IMG/VR virus record: IMGVR_UViG_3300028394_000069
Direction: 5' to 3' (one strand)
DNA: 20,000 nucleotides
Source: an uncultured virus (IMG/VR IMGVR_UViG_3300028394_000069)
Lineage: Duplodnaviria > Heunggongvirae > Uroviricota > Caudoviricetes
The position numbers and the translations under genes were made by a program. Shown here one piece after another: positions 3,112 to 20,000 of the stretch. Within the stretch, counting starts at the first letter, position 1, and the number at the start of each line of letters is the position of its first letter. The notes below the pieces were generated by a model, which made no database searches, was not told the DNA's origin, and saw only the letters and a program-made list of their open reading frames with translations.

Positions 3112-3723
3112 TTATTTTTGCATATTATGTTTTGTTAAAAGTTTAGTTGCTCTTGAATAATTGCCGCCCTTAGGAGAGAGATTGACATGTATTAGTGCTT
3201 GTCTTATATTAGACTCCTTTATTAGAGATGCAAGTAAGATTTCATCAGAAACTTTGGTTTTACCTGTATTTTTATTTTTACCACAATAAGTGTCGGTTAA
3301 AGAATGACAATTTGGACAAAGTAATCTTAGATTAGATAAAGTATTATTAAAATTATTTCCGTCAATATGATCCAATTCTAAATTAAGCTTTTGTCCTCTC
3401 CATTCACTAAGGTTACAAATTACACATTTATCGTCTATAAAATATTCTCTTAATAGTAATTTTTTAATTGCATGATTAGATAGAGTATTAGATTCACCGT
3501 TTATAAAGCGGCTAACTTGGTTTTGTTGTTTCGTTATAATAGATTTTTCTCTTGCTTCATCATTAAAACCTCCATTTCGTTGATTCATATTATAACAATG
3601 CTTTAATCCAGTTGAGTTTTTAGATCTATTCGCTGGACACGAGTTCCAAGATTTATTACAGATATTTTTACCTTGCTTAGTTATAAACTTTGCTTCATTA
3701 TTACAGCCATATTCACATTTCAT
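3112..3723 (-). CDS. Free-standing HNH homing endonuclease (start revised from 3747 to 3723)
   Basis: CVIC...LELDHIDGNNFNNTLSNLRLLCPNCHS HNH/zinc motif; ATTAAATA plus 5 nt precedes the MKCEYGC start. Confidence 0.88.
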   Translation of the reverse strand: MKCEYGCNNEAKFITKQGKNICNKSWNSCPANRSKNSTGLKHCYNMNQRNGGFNDEAREKSIITKQQNQVSRFINGESNTLSNHAIKKLLLREYFIDDKCVICNLSEWRGQKLNLELDHIDGNNFNNTLSNLRLLCPNCHSLTDTYCGKNKNTGKTKVSDEILLASLIKESNIRQALIHVNLSPKGGNYSRATKLLTKHNMQK

Positions 3724-3728
3724 ATAAG

Positions 3729-3736
3729 TATTTAAT
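3729..3736 (-). promoter_or_regulatory. T4-like late promoter of the HNH gene
   Basis: ATTAAATA-CTTAT-ATG. Confidence 0.6.
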
Positions 3737-3810
3737 ATGGCATACATTGTTTTAATTAAAATATTGATCTTTTATTAATTATATACTCCTTTTCTTGTTA
3801 ATCTACTTTT

Positions 3811-7049: not shown

Positions 7050-8165
7050 TTAGATAGTTTTCTTCCAGACGCTACTCTCACCGCGCCCAATTTTAACAAG
7101 TTTATTTGCATCAACAAGCTCCTTGAGAGTAAGGTAGGCTTGAGAAGGAGTAAGCTTAAATTTTTCAATAATCAGATTTTTAGTAATAAGAGGAGGATCA
7201 AGCTCAAGAATTTCTTTCTCAATATCTTGCTTACGAGTCTTTTTAGATTTACCCATATCACCTTCACGTTTACCGGTGAATTGAAATCCGTTATAACCAA
7301 GAGTTGCAGAATAATCGTTCGTAGGACCGAACCGATTCTTATAGACTGAGAAGATTCGACCACTACTATCTCCCTCTGTATCAGGCATAATTTGAATATT
7401 GACATCGACTGAGTGAGGTACCAGCGAGGATCCTTTCAGCTTACCGTCTTTAGTAAGGTGCATGATAAAGAATACAGCACACTCGTTCTCTTTTGCAGCT
7501 TTAATCAAAGCGCTTACAGCATAACGCTCAAGCTCAGCTTGATTGAGCTTATTCTTAGTAGTCAATGCTTGAAAGGAATCGATGACCAATACATCAAAAA
7601 TTTTAGTCGCCTCAACCAACTCATCAATATCTTGAATATTAGCGATTTGAATATTTTTCACGTTCAAACGGTTGCATGTAAAGGCGATCTGATATTGATT
7701 CTCTTCGCCAGAAGCATATCCAGTATTGTAACCGTTATTTGAGAGAGCTTCCATCAACTGCAAGAGGTAGGAAGTGTTATGATGAATAACACCATTCGGT
7801 GTTATATAGACATGAGGTGCATCAATTGATATATCATAAACTTCCGCATTTGTATTAACAGTTTGAATTGAAGAAATTTTAGATGAACCATAAATCGTAT
7901 CAACTGTTTGACAGTCTTTTACAAATTTACACTCACCTTCTTCAAAGACTAAATGCCGAGATGAAACATTAAATTCATCTCCGTTTTCAAGCTTAACATT
8001 TACAATCTCATGTTCCGTTTTTTTAATATATCCTCTAATAGGTACTACTTCCTTTGTTGGTGTTAAGACATAAAGTTGAGTATCTGTAAACTCGATATTA
8101 TTAATATCATCACCAATGTTAAGGAATTCGAATAGATCTTTAAATGTTACCGTTAATGATTTCAT
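7050..8165 (-). CDS. radA: RadA/Sms-like ATPase, C-terminal fragment (IntC 130 aa plus C-extein)
   Basis: After ...VIHHN come TSYLLQ, YASGEE, VLVIDSFQ (Walker B), HLTKDG..G...HSVD and the RadA signature KNRFG; C-terminus is winged-helix-like. Confidence 0.88.
   Translation of the reverse strand: MKSLTVTFKDLFEFLNIGDDINNIEFTDTQLYVLTPTKEVVPIRGYIKKTEHEIVNVKLENGDEFNVSSRHLVFEEGECKFVKDCQTVDTIYGSSKISSIQTVNTNAEVYDISIDAPHVYITPNGVIHHNTSYLLQLMEALSNNGYNTGYASGEENQYQIAFTCNRLNVKNIQIANIQDIDELVEATKIFDVLVIDSFQALTTKNKLNQAELERYAVSALIKAAKENECAVFFIMHLTKDGKLKGSSLVPHSVDVNIQIMPDTEGDSSGRIFSVYKNRFGPTNDYSATLGYNGFQFTGKREGDMGKSKKTRKQDIEKEILELDPPLITKNLIIEKFKLTPSQAYLTLKELVDANKLVKIGRGESSVWKKTI
7776..8165 (-). mobile_element. 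Split intein C-fragment (RadA)
   Basis: Block B-like FNVSSRHLV, block F VYDISIDAPHVYITPNG and block G IHHN|T. Confidence 0.9.
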
Positions 8166-9159
8166 ATAGTTTATTTTGTATTGCTTTATTATTATATCGG
8201 AGTTCGTTATATCGGAGTTCGTTATAGTTTTTTTCCCAAAAAGTTACAACTTTGTAACCTAATAATTCAGCTATAATTTTTTTTTCTTTATCATGTTTCC
8301 ATATTTCTTTTGCTGTTTTTTTTGTTATAGGGTTAATCCAATTTTCAGAGTATAATTCTGGATTAGCGTGCCATATATCACCATTAAATTCTAATATAAT
8401 TTTAGCTGCATGATTAATAAAATCATATATAAAAAATTTGTTACCTGTATTTATATACCACTGAGATTGCCAATTATCTGACAGTAAATTCCGTATATTT
8501 TTTTCTGGTTTAGAAATTGAAGCATTTAATCGAGATGCAATAATATCGCAAGCTTTTGTATATCCATACTGTTCTATTAACTGATGTCTGTTTCTTCCCT
8601 TACGAGGATTAATAGAAGGGTCACATTCTATAGCTAGCTGCATAGATGTTTGCCATTGATTATTTCTCTTATTTATTATAGCATCAACTTCACTATATGA
8701 GAAGCCTTTATTAAGGTAAAAATTGCGACCTCTAGCCTGTTGTTTTGCTGTATATAAGTTATTATCTTGTTTTGTTTTTACTGATTTTTTTACACGCTGT
8801 AACTTATTTGTATTTGAACGAGTAGTTTGGTGTTCTTTTATTATAAAATCTGATTCTTGCTTAGTATAGCCACGTAAAATATAATAATTTGACTGTAGGA
8901 TTCCTGTTGCCTTCAGGTTATTGACAGTTTTCCATTTATTAAATTGAATCTCTAAATCCCATGCAGACATAGACTCTTTTGTTAAACAGCTATCGAAAAA
9001 ACTCTTAACATGATTATAGTTTTTAAATGGTAAAAAGTTTAACCCCCTTTTTAAAGATATATCAATTAAAAAATCTTCTATATCTTTATAAGATATGCAA
9101 TGTTTTATGACTGTTACATAGGCCTTTTTATTTTTTCGTATACGTTGAGTTATATTCAT
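8140..9159 (-). CDS. Vsr-like PD-(D/E)XK (EDxHD-type) free-standing homing endonuclease between the radA halves
   Basis: YDF..IILEFNGDIWHANP..IWKHDKEK..GYKVVTFWE; N-terminal repeats YYILRGYT and FYLNKGFS. Confidence 0.82.
   Translation of the reverse strand: MNITQRIRKNKKAYVTVIKHCISYKDIEDFLIDISLKRGLNFLPFKNYNHVKSFFDSCLTKESMSAWDLEIQFNKWKTVNNLKATGILQSNYYILRGYTKQESDFIIKEHQTTRSNTNKLQRVKKSVKTKQDNNLYTAKQQARGRNFYLNKGFSYSEVDAIINKRNNQWQTSMQLAIECDPSINPRKGRNRHQLIEQYGYTKACDIIASRLNASISKPEKNIRNLLSDNWQSQWYINTGNKFFIYDFINHAAKIILEFNGDIWHANPELYSENWINPITKKTAKEIWKHDKEKKIIAELLGYKVVTFWEKNYNELRYNELRYNNKAIQNKLYEIINGNI
8191..8226 (-). repeat. 15-bp tandem repeat (2.3 copies) containing an embedded GAACT-N4-TATAAT promoter
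   Basis: ttatatcggagttcg at 8192-8206 and 8207-8221; the minus strand reads CGAACTCCGATATAAC and then CGAACTCCGATATAAT; encodes YNELRYNELRYNN. Confidence 0.9.
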
Positions 9160-9164
9160 ATAAC

Positions 9165-9172
9165 TATTTATG
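9165..9172 (-). promoter_or_regulatory. T4-like late promoter of the Vsr-like endonuclease
   Basis: CATAAATA-GTTAT-ATG. Confidence 0.6.
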
Positions 9173-9182
9173 CCTGCGTGAG

Positions 9183-9446
9183 CTATTTGCCCGCTTTAGC
9201 GGCCAACCACGTTTGGAATTTATTAATAATATCGTCCGATCCAAAAATTTCAATAATCTCATTAGGACCGTGACACTTACCGCATCCAGCTTGAGCCGTA
9301 AGGGTGGTAGCACTTCCAGGAAGAATACCTTCGCCGTACATTTCATCCATCTCTGCGATTCCCGTCTTGATACGATTGTAAAAGATACTAGGAATAGTAA
9401 CATCAGAAACTTTTGTAAAGTTAGAAGAATGATTTAAGAGATTCAT
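9183..9446 (-). CDS. radA: RadA/Sms-like ATPase, N-terminal fragment (57-aa extein plus 30-aa IntN)
   Basis: RIKTGIAEMDEMYGEGILPGSATTLTAQAGCGK resembles RadA R..TG..ELD.VLGGG..PGS..L..G.PG.GK, followed by intein Cys1. Confidence 0.88.
   Translation of the reverse strand: MNLLNHSSNFTKVSDVTIPSIFYNRIKTGIAEMDEMYGEGILPGSATTLTAQAGCGKCHGPNEIIEIFGSDDIINKFQTWLAAKAGK
9186..9275 (-). mobile_element. Split intein N-fragment (RadA), 30 aa
   Basis: CHGPNEIIEIFGSDDIINKFQTWLAAKAGK: block A-like, starting at Cys directly after the P-loop Lys. Confidence 0.82.
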
Positions 9447-9475
9447 TTTGATATATTGGGTTAATTACTTTCTTA

Positions 9476-9491
9476 ATTATATCGGAGTTCA
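9476..9491 (-). promoter_or_regulatory. YGAACT-N4-TATAAT promoter of radA-N
   Basis: TGAACTCCGATATAAT. Confidence 0.78.
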
Positions 9492-10202
9492 TTACGATAG
9501 AGATTCTTTTTGATGCTCTTTCAATTCCAACTCTGCAAGAATTCTGCCTCGACACCAACGATCATCGCCGTATCCATTATAGTAGAACGCAATACTCTCA
9601 TGAAAATGTCCTGTATAAATATGAGAAGCTTTACACTGTCTAAGCAGACTGTCAATATTATTTTTTTCTTCTACACAATCTGTATATAAATTAACGTCTT
9701 GTTTAGGAATATATTGAGGTGGTAGTGGAGACGGAAACAGCCACAAAGGAGCGCTATGCGTAACAAGTACATCACATTCTTGAATTAATTCTGGCTTTAA
9801 TACAAAAGCTTCATCAGGCCACCAACCTCCTCCTTCAGTCTGTCGACTATACCGATCGATAGAGTGAGCACCGCCTGCAAATAAAAATCGTTCATCGTTA
9901 ATAACTTTTAACGTATAATCAGGAATTAATTCAAAGTTTGATAGTTTAAAGTTGTCGTTAAAAGGTTTAGGATCGTCGTGGTTACCTCGAATAGACAAGA
10001 AGGATATATTTCGTTTTTTAAAAAAACTATTTAACCATTTAATATTTTTACTTTCTTGCTCCGGAATGTCAAATCCAATGCCTAAATCACCGACGCAAAT
10101 GAGATAACAATCGCGTAAATTAGCATTAATAATTTTTGATGTGAGATATGTAAATCTACCATGTACGTCTCCAAGTAAGCAAATTAAATTTTTAGATTTC
10201 AT
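9492..10202 (-). CDS. Calcineurin-like metallophosphoesterase
   Basis: GDVHG, GDLG, GNHD, THSAP and GHFH motifs. Confidence 0.9.
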   Translation of the reverse strand: MKSKNLICLLGDVHGRFTYLTSKIINANLRDCYLICVGDLGIGFDIPEQESKNIKWLNSFFKKRNISFLSIRGNHDDPKPFNDNFKLSNFELIPDYTLKVINDERFLFAGGAHSIDRYSRQTEGGGWWPDEAFVLKPELIQECDVLVTHSAPLWLFPSPLPPQYIPKQDVNLYTDCVEEKNNIDSLLRQCKASHIYTGHFHESIAFYYNGYGDDRWCRGRILAELELKEHQKESLS

Positions 10203-17226: not shown

Positions 17227-17889
17227 ATGGCAAAAAAAAGTTCAAAAAGCGAATATTATTTAGGTAACCCGAATTTGCCAAATAAGCACTGGAAAGAAGA
17301 GTATACCTTAAAAATGGTAAATGATTTAAAACAATGTAAAGAAGATTTACTTTACTTTGCAGAAAATTTCTTTTATATTATTGATCCAGATAAAGGTAAG
17401 CTTAAGATAGAGCTTTTCGATTATCAAAAGAAAGCACTTAATACTCTCTTAAACAATAGACAAGTTATATTATTAGCAAGTCGGCAGATCGGTAAAACGA
17501 CAATGCTGACAATTTACGCATTATGGATAGCTTGTTTTAATGAATATCAAAATATTATTATTGTAGCTAATAAAGAATCTACGGCTATAGAAATATTTAG
17601 AAGAGTTAGGTTAGCATACGAAGAGATGCCGAACTGGTCCAAGCCTGGTGTTAAGGAATACGGTAAGACATCACTAGAGCTAGAAAACGGTTCACGTATC
17701 GGTATTAGTACTACCACAGGTTCTGCTGCTAGAGGTGCTTCTATAAACTGTATAACAGGTGAAACATTTATAACCTTACGTGATAAAGAAACAAATAAAG
17801 TATTTGATATTACTATAAAGGAGTTAGAGTATATAATAAGCACAAACGGTAAAATTATACCTATTTTTATTGAAAGCGAAGTTGTCTAA
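17227..17889 (+). CDS. terL: Terminase large subunit (gp17), N-terminal fragment (174-aa extein plus 46-aa IntN)
   Basis: YLGNPNL, LFDYQK (adenine-binding), ASRQIGKTT (Walker A), IELENGS-like LELENGS, AARGASIN followed by intein Cys1. Confidence 0.93.
   Translation: MAKKSSKSEYYLGNPNLPNKHWKEEYTLKMVNDLKQCKEDLLYFAENFFYIIDPDKGKLKIELFDYQKKALNTLLNNRQVILLASRQIGKTTMLTIYALWIACFNEYQNIIIVANKESTAIEIFRRVRLAYEEMPNWSKPGVKEYGKTSLELENGSRIGISTTTGSAARGASINCITGETFITLRDKETNKVFDITIKELEYIISTNGKIIPIFIESEVV
17749..17886 (+). mobile_element. Split intein N-fragment (TerL), 46 aa
   Basis: CITGETFITLRDKETNKVFDITIKEL: block A plus the I.eL helix. Confidence 0.9.
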
Positions 17890-17902
17890 AATAAGTCGTT
17901 AG

Positions 17903-17910
17903 TATAAATA
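17903..17910 (+). promoter_or_regulatory. T4 late promoter consensus for the GIY-YIG gene and terL-C
   Basis: TATAAATA-TTTAG-ATG(17916). Confidence 0.7.
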
Positions 17911-17915
17911 TTTAG

Positions 17916-18779
17916 ATGATGAGAAATGATCCTAATGATAATCGTAAATATAACTATTGTTACAAAATAACAAATCATATTAATAAAATGATATATATTG
18001 GTGTACATAGAACTGATAATATTAATGATAATTATATGGGATCTGGTAAACTTATAAAACGATCAATCTTTAAATATGGTATAGAAAATTTTACTAAAGA
18101 AATATTAGCATTTTTTGATACATATAAAGAAGCTTTAGAATATGAAAGAAAGATTGTTACTATAGATTTTATTGAAGAAGATACAAATTATAATTTAAGA
18201 GAAGGTGGCTATGGTAATTGTGCGTTATCTACGATACAAAAAGCAATTATATCGGAAAGTAAAAAACAATTATATGCAAATAATGAGCAGTATCGTGAAA
18301 AAATGAATATAATCTTTAAAGATCCTATAAGAAACACAAAAATTGGTAAAAAAGTTAAAACATGGATATTAGAAAATCCAGAATTACACAAAGAAAAAAT
18401 GGATAAAATTAATTATAATCCAACTAAAATAAAAAAGACAGCAGCTAAACATCGAGGTATGAAAAGATCTGATGAAGCTAAACGTAATATGTCTATTTCA
18501 CATCTTAATCTGTCAGCAGAGCAAAAGAAAGCTAAAAGTGGCGTAGGTTGTTTTTATATTATAAATAATGAAACTAAAGAAGTTAAAAGACATATAGGTG
18601 AGATACCATTAGGTTGGAGTAGAGGTTCTGGTCCTAAGAAAAATAAAGAAAGATATAAATCTCTTAATAAAGGATCTTTTTTTGCTTATAATATACATAC
18701 AGGCGAGTTAATAAGATTACAACAAGGTACTGAAATACCTCAACATTACATAAAAGGAAGACCTACAAAAAATGGCTGA
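17916..18779 (+). CDS. Seg-like GIY-YIG homing endonuclease between the terL halves
   Basis: YCYKITN..NKMIYIGVH, YMGSG, KYGIENF.KEIL and YNLREGG; NUMOD3-like HRGMKRSDEAKRNMS; C-terminal EIPxxWxxG-type repeats. Confidence 0.9.
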   Translation: MMRNDPNDNRKYNYCYKITNHINKMIYIGVHRTDNINDNYMGSGKLIKRSIFKYGIENFTKEILAFFDTYKEALEYERKIVTIDFIEEDTNYNLREGGYGNCALSTIQKAIISESKKQLYANNEQYREKMNIIFKDPIRNTKIGKKVKTWILENPELHKEKMDKINYNPTKIKKTAAKHRGMKRSDEAKRNMSISHLNLSAEQKKAKSGVGCFYIINNETKEVKRHIGEIPLGWSRGSGPKKNKERYKSLNKGSFFAYNIHTGELIRLQQGTEIPQHYIKGRPTKNG

Positions 18780-19113
18780 TTTACAAAATTATAAATGTAT
18801 TGAAAATACGAGATTTGAAGTATTAACTGATCAAGGGTTTAAAGACTTTAAAGGTTTAATAGTAGGTGAAAATATAAATAAAATAAACTTACGATTTAAT
18901 AATGGTATAGAACTTAACTGTACACCTAAGCATAAAATTATACTTAAAAACAATGCAATAGTTTATGCTCATAATTTAAACGTTGGTGATGTAGTATACA
19001 ATGACTATGTTATTGAAGAGATTAATATGTTTATCTCAAACGATAAAGTATATGAATTACTTGAAGTAGCAGATACACATAAATACTTCGCAAATGGGAT
19101 ATTAAGTCATCAA
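18772..19113 (+). mobile_element. Split intein C-fragment (TerL), Gln-terminal
   Basis: FEVLTDQGFKDF, block B LNCTPKHKII, block F VYELLEVADTHKYFANG and block G ILSHQ|C. Confidence 0.9.
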
Positions 19114-20000
19114 TGCTTAATTATTGATGAAATGGCCTTTATTGAGCCTGAGTCGATATTACAAGACTTTTGGCGTTCAGTCTTTCCTACTATATCGCGT
19201 TCAAAAAAATCAAAAGTACTTATTGCATCTACTCCTAACGGTACCGGTAATCTCTTTCACACCTTATTTGATGGAGCAGAAAAAAAAGAAAATGAGTTTG
19301 TATATGAAAGAATACTTTGGTCAGCTATACCAGGAAGAGATGAAGAGTGGAAGCAGAAGCAAATTAGAGCTTTAGGTTCTACAGAATCATTCTTACAAGA
19401 ATATGAAACGGTATTTCTTGCAACCGGAGACTCTTCTTTAGATGATGAATTATTTTATAAATTATCTCAAAATTGTAAACCAGCACCTATAATATTAGAT
19501 GAAGGTCATTATCAGATATGGGAAGAACCTGACGCGGCTCGTGTATATGTAGCAGGAGTTGATATAGCAGAAGGAGTCGGGGTTGATGCTTCAGTTATTC
19601 AAATATTAGATATTACTGATTTAGCACAAATTAAACAAGTAGCAGTATATCATAATAATAATATTGCGCCTCTCGAATTTACAAATAAGCTCTATAACAT
19701 ACTGCGTAATTGGGGCAGTCCAATTGCTTTAATAGAACGTAATAACTGCGGCGCGCAAGTAGTTGATAGACTAGTCTTCGACATGGGATATGAAAAAATT
19801 GTATCTTATGGAGCAAAAGTAGCAGGTAGAAATAGAGCGCAAATGGGAATGATAGCTCATACTAATACCAAATATAAAGGTATTTTAAATATGAGATATT
19901 TCCTTAATGAAGTAAAATGCATTGAATTTAACGATATAGACACATTAAAAGAGTTAAAAGACTTTGTTAGGCAGCCTAACGGAACCTGGAGAGCTAGAGG
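18772..20000 (+). CDS. terL: Terminase large subunit C-terminal fragment (IntC 114 aa plus C-extein), partial and missing from the ORF track
   Basis: Manual translation from ATG 18772: MADLQNYK...ILSHQ|CLIIDEMAF (Walker B), ASTPNG (coupling motif), FLQEY, VAGVDIAEGVGVDAS and IERN (RNase H-fold nuclease); open to the window end. Confidence 0.93.
   Translation, partial: MADLQNYKCIENTRFEVLTDQGFKDFKGLIVGENINKINLRFNNGIELNCTPKHKIILKNNAIVYAHNLNVGDVVYNDYVIEEINMFISNDKVYELLEVADTHKYFANGILSHQCLIIDEMAFIEPESILQDFWRSVFPTISRSKKSKVLIASTPNGTGNLFHTLFDGAEKKENEFVYERILWSAIPGRDEEWKQKQIRALGSTESFLQEYETVFLATGDSSLDDELFYKLSQNCKPAPIILDEGHYQIWEEPDAARVYVAGVDIAEGVGVDASVIQILDITDLAQIKQVAVYHNNNIAPLEFTNKLYNILRNWGSPIALIERNNCGAQVVDRLVFDMGYEKIVSYGAKVAGRNRAQMGMIAHTNTKYKGILNMRYFLNEVKCIEFNDIDTLKELKDFVRQPNGTWRAR

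Follow-up and report, generated by a model that had tools for sequence, protein, structure and literature searches.

A candidate promoter for the downstream half of a fractured phage radA gene, located within the intervening endonuclease gene

The split radA locus and its nuclease

The stretch of viral DNA analysed here (20,000 nucleotides, the window) derives from a phage that is, by its sequence, AT-rich and T4-like. Its GC content is 32.8%, profile searches found a T4-type terminase domain and, weakly, a neck protein, and TAAATA late-type elements are present. G001, a longer record of this phage, shares 16,557 bases with the window, differing at 2 of them. Two close relatives (L001, L077) carry a near-identical element, and L002 represents an intact, intein-less radA allele. 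The same split radA occurs in two distant phages, G005 (L069) and G004 (L070); lineages with DNA number three. The features of the window locus, in the direction of transcription, are:

9476..9493 (core 9476-9490), minus strand: promoter-class site AAT-GAACTCCGATATAAT of radA-N, 29 nt before the ATG
9183..9446, minus strand: radA-N, a 57-aa RadA/Sms-like N-extein with Walker A GCGK at its end, plus a 30-aa N-intein
9186-9275, minus strand: N-intein of radA-N, first residue Cys
9165..9172, minus strand: late-type promoter CATAAATA, 5 nt ahead of the nuclease ATG
9148..9165, minus strand: weak 7-bp hairpin across the nuclease start codon, -3.0 kcal/mol
8140..9159, minus strand: Vsr-like (EDxHD-type) putative homing endonuclease, free-standing, 339 aa
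8206..8226 (core 8206-8220), minus strand: upstream unit of an in-frame 15-bp tandem duplication, -10 box TATAAC with one mismatch
8191..8208 (core 8191-8205), minus strand: embedded promoter-class site AAC-GAACTCCGATATAAT, 25 nt before the radA-C ATG (8165)
7050..8165, minus strand: radA-C, a 130-aa C-intein and the RadA C-extein, the latter beginning with Thr
7776-8165, minus strand: C-intein of radA-C, ending HHN, then TSYLLQ

An enzyme gene is broken here by a split intein, with all parts on the same strand. Between the halves lies a free-standing endonuclease ORF, which is preceded by a late promoter element and overlaps radA-C with its final 26 nt. The order N-extein/N-intein, endonuclease, C-intein/C-extein resembles that of the fractured genes of Dassa 2009, in which a split intein is combined with a free-standing Vsr-like or GIY-YIG endonuclease. 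The late TATAAATA element is likewise common to both, and possibly also the hairpin at the nuclease 5′ end; the 3′ overlaps with the downstream start range from 6 to 69 nt in that study (PMC2677866). The main text of that paper contains 0 occurrences of 'RadA'. The intact L002 allele reads GCGK-TSYLLQ continuously, thus radA in the window is broken inside an atypically split intein. Profile searches of the radA locus gave Pfam Intein_splicing at E 3.4e-07, below cut-off, and a match to the Pho radA intein at E 2.4e-4. The catalytic end residues are present, and the two halves would be expected to trans-splice to an intact enzyme.

The ORF between the halves resembles a Vsr-like endonuclease gene, and its product is presumed to be active. 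D246, E257 and G260 are invariant and H264 is at least 90% conserved in 80 aligned relatives, while N259 occupies a position where D is usual. Profile or fold matches to I-Bth0305I (3R3P), Vsr (1CW0) and 3HRL were present, none of them at E 0.001; a DUF559 match (E 0.011) was below cut-off. I-Bth0305I, intron-encoded in recA, is the prototype of the EDxHD family. The two proteins may share a C-terminal Vsr-like nuclease domain, with weak profile and fold matches to 3R3P, but here the motif reads E-F-N-G-D-x-W-H and the N-terminal domain is a different one (PMC3239194). The last strand of the catalytic domain is W308-E309, and in the predicted structure the tail forms helices 309-322 and 326-336. 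The embedded site lies right after this strand.

The late-type nuclease promoter reported by the first-pass annotation, CATAAATA with 5 nt to the ATG, was found. TAARTA stands exactly 5 nt before the ATG at 4 of 19 long ORFs in the window and at 8 of 51 in the relative G002. The start-codon hairpin, with a z value of -1.09, does not reach significance by itself. In L070 a stronger hairpin encloses the late motif together with the ATG, and in L069 a strong hairpin immediately precedes the ATG. Elsewhere in the window, a free-standing HNH endonuclease ORF (3112-3747, minus strand; Pfam HNH E 0.0022) has few long ORFs around it.

A promoter-class site in the nuclease tail

The window contains 10 exact copies of the pattern GAACT-N4-TATAAT, on the minus strand only. 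Allowing at most one mismatch, 12 matches were found against 1.59 expected, a count reached by 0 of 200 shuffles. The core GAACTCCGATATAAT is present on the minus strand both at 9476-9490 and at 8191-8205, the two positions named at first pass, and the claimed distance of 25 nt between the embedded site and the radA-C ATG holds. The promoter consensus of the phage is located within the endonuclease ORF and 5′ of the next gene, as in the T4 cases discussed below. In the nuclease frame it reads E-L-R-Y-N, and the tail of the 339-aa ORF reads YNELRYNELRYNN. RNA synthesis from this site would start near 8184. The embedded sites were kept out of the training of all scoring matrices, as was a further in-ORF site of G004. 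On the matrix of its own phage, the window site scores 31.1, within a training range of 17.6-31.9, and 0 of 73,332 non-training positions score as high.

The 15-bp tandem duplication described inside the nuclease ORF was confirmed. Three tandem 5-codon units of the form E-x-x-Y-N follow one another at 8191-8235 (minus strand), namely EKNYN, ELRYN and ELRYN. In a -10 box the final T is critical. None of the 30 other G001 sites has the TATAAC of the upstream unit, suggesting that this unit is probably weak or silent. An assembly artefact of one record was rejected, as the duplication is also present in G001, L001 and L077 and thus common to four records. Four of four closer homologues (47-87% identical) lack it, each having a single EL(R/G)YN. 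The duplication as the route of promoter arrival was likewise rejected, since these proteins (P0002-P0005) have one ELxYN without it, as seen at the protein level. Judged by these comparisons, the duplication is recent, dispensable and incidental, and may have arisen by slippage, in frame, from one TATAA word to another at a distance of 15 nt. The tails of P0003 and P0004 are codon-compatible with an overlap of the P0008 start; those of P0002 and P0005 fit 0 of 8 starts. In the nuclease family, the codons for W-E-x-D-Y-K/N are close to the promoter consensus of this phage, a possible route to a new promoter.

The radA-N promoter, surroundings included, is the same in L002, whose radA is intact and lacks the intein, and is, on this comparison, part of the resident phage background. 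The cassette behaves differently from its flanks. Between the window and L001, the N-intein is 100%, the nuclease 99.3% and the C-intein 99.7% identical, the flanking phosphoesterase gene 77.8%, the N-extein 97.1%, the C-extein 88.4% and the next gene 95.3%. An element of 99.3-100% identity between flanks of 77.8-97.1% fits recent movement as a unit, in this one pair; an empty allele exists (L002). The pattern fits a cassette whose promoter moves with it, whichever radA-N promoter is resident.

The embedded site had been described as an exact copy of the radA-N promoter, with the CCGA spacer shared by these two sites alone. Inside the 20-kb window the sharing is indeed unique; in G001, CCGA is the modal spacer, found at 13 of 30 sites and at 11 of 28 without the two radA sites. 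The impression of a copy arose because only the narrow window had been viewed. Ten other promoters of G001 match the embedded site over 17-23 nt, the radA-N promoter over 15 nt. In its fuller form the motif reads AAY-GAACT, with a difference at the Y between the two radA sites (AAT at radA-N, AAC in the nuclease). In L001 and L077 the embedded spacer is still CCGA while that of the radA-N promoter is TCGA, and the two cores differ at 1 position in these relatives, at 2 in G005 and at 3 in G004. By these counts, the 15/15 identity is a consensus occurring twice, a match of promoter class and not of exact sequence. Matched stoichiometry can therefore not be read from sequence identity, and the copy claim is not upheld.

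Distant phages and other fractured genes

RadA-C of G004 and G005 is 44-45% identical to that of the window phage, with the same intein split point; the orthologous nucleases are 31 and 36% identical. The motif of G005 is AAAACTAGA(A/C)TAY(A/C/-like)T, a pattern that was loosened after this locus had been seen; it lies 6-9 nt before the ATG at 7 of 7 sites found. The G005 nuclease gene ends with AAACTAGAATACAAT, 6 nt before the radA-C ATG. This site is identical to two of the six other sites and 2 bases off the phage's own radA-N promoter. The nuclease tail after W-E comprises 17 aa, compared with a family median of 23. In G004 the motif is G-GAACT-N4-TATAAT (25 sites, 3 of them GAACC), and the nuclease gene holds GAACCCTACTATAAT, 32 nt before radA-C and 3 bases off the own radA-N promoter. 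Whereas the G005 site is strong, that of G004 is weak: all 23 training sites have higher scores, and its score is reached by 5 of 69,202 other positions. In the protein the G004 site coincides with an N-P-T-I-I peptide, which is also found in unrelated family members.

The embedded sites thus stand 6 nt (G005), 25 nt (window) and 32 nt (G004) before the radA-C ATG. They lie 19 nt (G005), 23 nt (G004) and 33 nt (window; its upstream unit 18 nt) downstream of the conserved Trp codon, in reading frames 1, 2 and 0, respectively. Each scores best on the matrix of its own phage (G005 29.8, G004 13.6, window 31.1). The motif is strand-specific and almost wholly intergenic. Internal sites in ORFs of at least 100 aa number 1 in 19,557 nt in G001 and 1 in 6,660 nt in G005, both in the nuclease gene, and 2 in 22,197 nt in G004 (nuclease and phosphoesterase genes). 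When synonymous codons were resampled with the tail protein fixed, the motif was kept in 257 of 20,000 cases for G005, 741 of 20,000 for G004 and 7,229 of 20,000 for the window; codon choice in the window is consequently no independent evidence. The evidence for the window is instead the ELxYN tail, present in 5 of 155 nuclease relatives, all of this clade, and in none of the 150 others.

The promoters of the three phages form a family (A/G)AACT-N4-TA(T/C)AAT with lineage-specific variants (30 sites in G001, 25 in G004, 7 in G005), often situated 5-7 nt before the ATG, i.e. leaderless. In G001, the 30 sites fall within 36.7 kb. A conserved -35 box was found in none of G001, G004 and G005, and a literature search on motifs of this type yielded nothing relevant among the papers listed. 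Searches of metagenome contigs, of genome contigs and with P0075 revealed no new split-radA locus beyond L077, a close relative and the one radA locus among 7 metagenome contig loci, and pattern scans for more had 0 matches.

The terminase gene of the window provides a second fractured gene:

17227-20000, plus strand: terminase large subunit gene, N-half 17227-17889, C-half from 18772
17916-18779, plus strand: GIY-YIG gene splitting the terminase gene, 8-nt overlap with the C-half

The terminase intein has an N-part of ~46 aa and a C-part ending SHQ, followed by Cys. The GIY-YIG gene has a late-type promoter at 17903 (TATAAATA, 5 nt, ATG), and its last 159 nt contain no early or late motif. 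In the relative L001 the terminase gene is intact. In L087, a related nuclease (33% identity over residues 91-314) splits a gene that is, by sequence recognition, presumably clamp-loader-like; the nuclease tail is ordinary and without a site, although the record has two GAACT-type sites. Among distant nucleases, a motif near the stop codon was found at one of 101 distinct loci (from 136), which is the G005 locus; this survey is a weak control because most of those phages probably use other promoters. Viral contigs were scanned for W-E-x-D plus promoter; among 80 of the 81 loci listed, the 2 Vsr-like ones are the two sources of the pattern. The controls are few or weak, and none contradicts an embedded promoter.

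The same atypically split type of intein (N-part of ~20-40 aa) occurs in clamp-loader-like ATPase genes of other phages, with or without a nuclease in between:

L087 4478-7359; L072 3251-5125; L076 2194-5158; L073-L075: clamp-loader-like split-intein loci

At L074 (4001-5721), the clamp-loader-like gene is apparently in three pieces with two intein junctions. In L089 (315-7678) and L115 (347-7623), a stretch of less than 8 kb contains two adjacent genes, each interrupted by a Vsr-like nuclease.

Known systems and interpretation

Embedded promoters of downstream genes are described in phage T4 for segG (gene 32), segA, segE, mobB, mobC and mobE (nrdB) (PMC2988022, PMC2790892); segG, segA, segE, mobB and mobC are listed by Edgell 2010 (PMC2988022). 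There, as would be the case here, a promoter located in the endonuclease ORF compensates for the silencing of the nuclease and makes loss of the nuclease gene less likely. The T4 insertions are intergenic and the promoter substitutes a pre-existing one, whereas here the break is inside a gene (PMC2988022, PMC2790892). The embedded site is no stand-in for a displaced promoter, as the intact L002 has no site there, and unlike in T4 the downstream product is half a protein that needs trans-splicing. In Aeh1 nrdA-a / mobE / nrdA-b, an early gene is likewise split and the endonuclease is silenced by RNA structure; that locus differs in having no intein and one early promoter with read-through for both halves, and the account consulted describes no separate promoter of the downstream half (PMC3045599). 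For fractured genes, Dassa 2009 listed promoter creation as a hard step in gene fission and left downstream transcription open; transcription signals of the downstream half in the 3′ end of the element were one of two options (PMC2677866). No such 3′ promoter is named in the relevant parts of that paper (PMC2677866); here a site is identified and follows the motif of each phage.

The embedded site is considered real and probably functional as the radA-C promoter, with a probability of about three in four. radA-C would then probably be transcribed from an early-class promoter of its own, which the mobile element carries. The proposal that both halves have promoters of their own is retained to this extent: an early-class site precedes radA-C apart from the late nuclease promoter; exact copying and fixed stoichiometry are dropped. 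In the proposed mechanism, a cassette of a 30-aa N-intein, a Vsr-like nuclease and a 130-aa C-intein would have split the phage radA at Walker A. The nuclease would be kept quiet early by its late-type promoter and the start-codon hairpin, and its late RNA would be nearly leaderless. Untranslated RNA is subject to Rho-dependent polarity. About 1 kb of poorly translated RNA would lie between the radA-N promoter and radA-C, polarity being the likely cost of read-through, which would account for a cassette that carries a standard early (pre-late) promoter. A separate radA-C transcript would be made in the same time window as radA-N, allowing the halves to trans-splice. The embedded site would travel with the cassette and probably also guard the nuclease gene against deletion. 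An early timing of the class is suggested by its TATAAT box and by how densely such sites cluster ahead of small ORFs.

Alternatively, the site may be active but mainly boost downstream genes or protect the nuclease, with radA-C served by read-through from 9476 and 10210. An intrinsic terminator between radA-N and the nuclease was not found, so that read-through could serve radA-C, and such promoters precede very many genes here. The fractured nrdA of Aeh1 runs from one early promoter (PMC3045599), and retention has been argued for the embedded promoters of T4 (PMC2988022, PMC2790892). However, the downstream genes needed no internal site, as the intact radA of L002 is without one, and the placement just before radA-C is the same in three lineages. 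A role of this kind is regarded as unlikely.

It is very unlikely that the site is a by-product of coding for E-L-R-Y-N, unused as a promoter. It is in frame with this peptide, 36% of the synonymous resamplings keep it, and the structure prediction places the tail in helices. Against this stand the absence of ELxYN from all 150 other relatives examined, the three frames and peptides in three phages, and the G005 site, which matches two of six other promoters exactly and lies in a tail of 17 aa, against a family median of 23. That the embedded site is a radA-N promoter copy kept identical for matched amounts of both halves is scarcely credible: the identical cores in the window and the common 6-nt promoter-to-ATG spacing of the G005 halves are outweighed by the 11 of 28 other G001 promoters with the same 15-mer, the ten longer matches, the divergence in relatives, the movement of the cassette apart from the radA-N promoter, and the differing leaders together with read-through and late transcripts that could reach radA-C past a junction without a detected terminator, from which matched amounts do not follow.

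If the embedded site serves as the radA-C promoter, its origin may differ between phages. It is possible, although doubtful, that one cassette gained a C-half promoter separately in each lineage, fitted to each motif by three routes. In the window phage, a 15-nt slippage of the W-E-x-x-Y-N codons of the nuclease (GAA-N6-TATAAY), which are near the promoter spelling, could have produced it. In G005, a captured genomic leaderless promoter may have replaced the C-terminal helix, and in G004 point changes may have accumulated over the pre-existing N-P-T-I-I peptide.

The first-pass view that the arrangement was undescribed cannot be maintained in view of the T4 embedded promoters and the proposal of Dassa 2009 (PMC2988022, PMC2790892, PMC2677866). 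Among the titles and abstracts searched, mostly of non-subscription literature, none reported that a 3′ promoter had been identified at a split-intein locus. The novelty is an identified site that fills a predicted slot and, unlike in T4, a point at which no promoter existed before insertion. The locus further contributes a RadA-like host protein whose intein is split atypically, into 30 and 130 aa. If separate gains of the kind outlined above took place, acquiring the promoter would be what allows a fractured state to persist in an early gene, and fractured genes of the late class would depend on the late promoter of the nuclease; the late terminase gene in the same window represents this alternative arrangement. 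For an early gene, these loci offer a candidate, testable answer, in which the invader brings a promoter of the host-phage class to a place where the intact gene had none.
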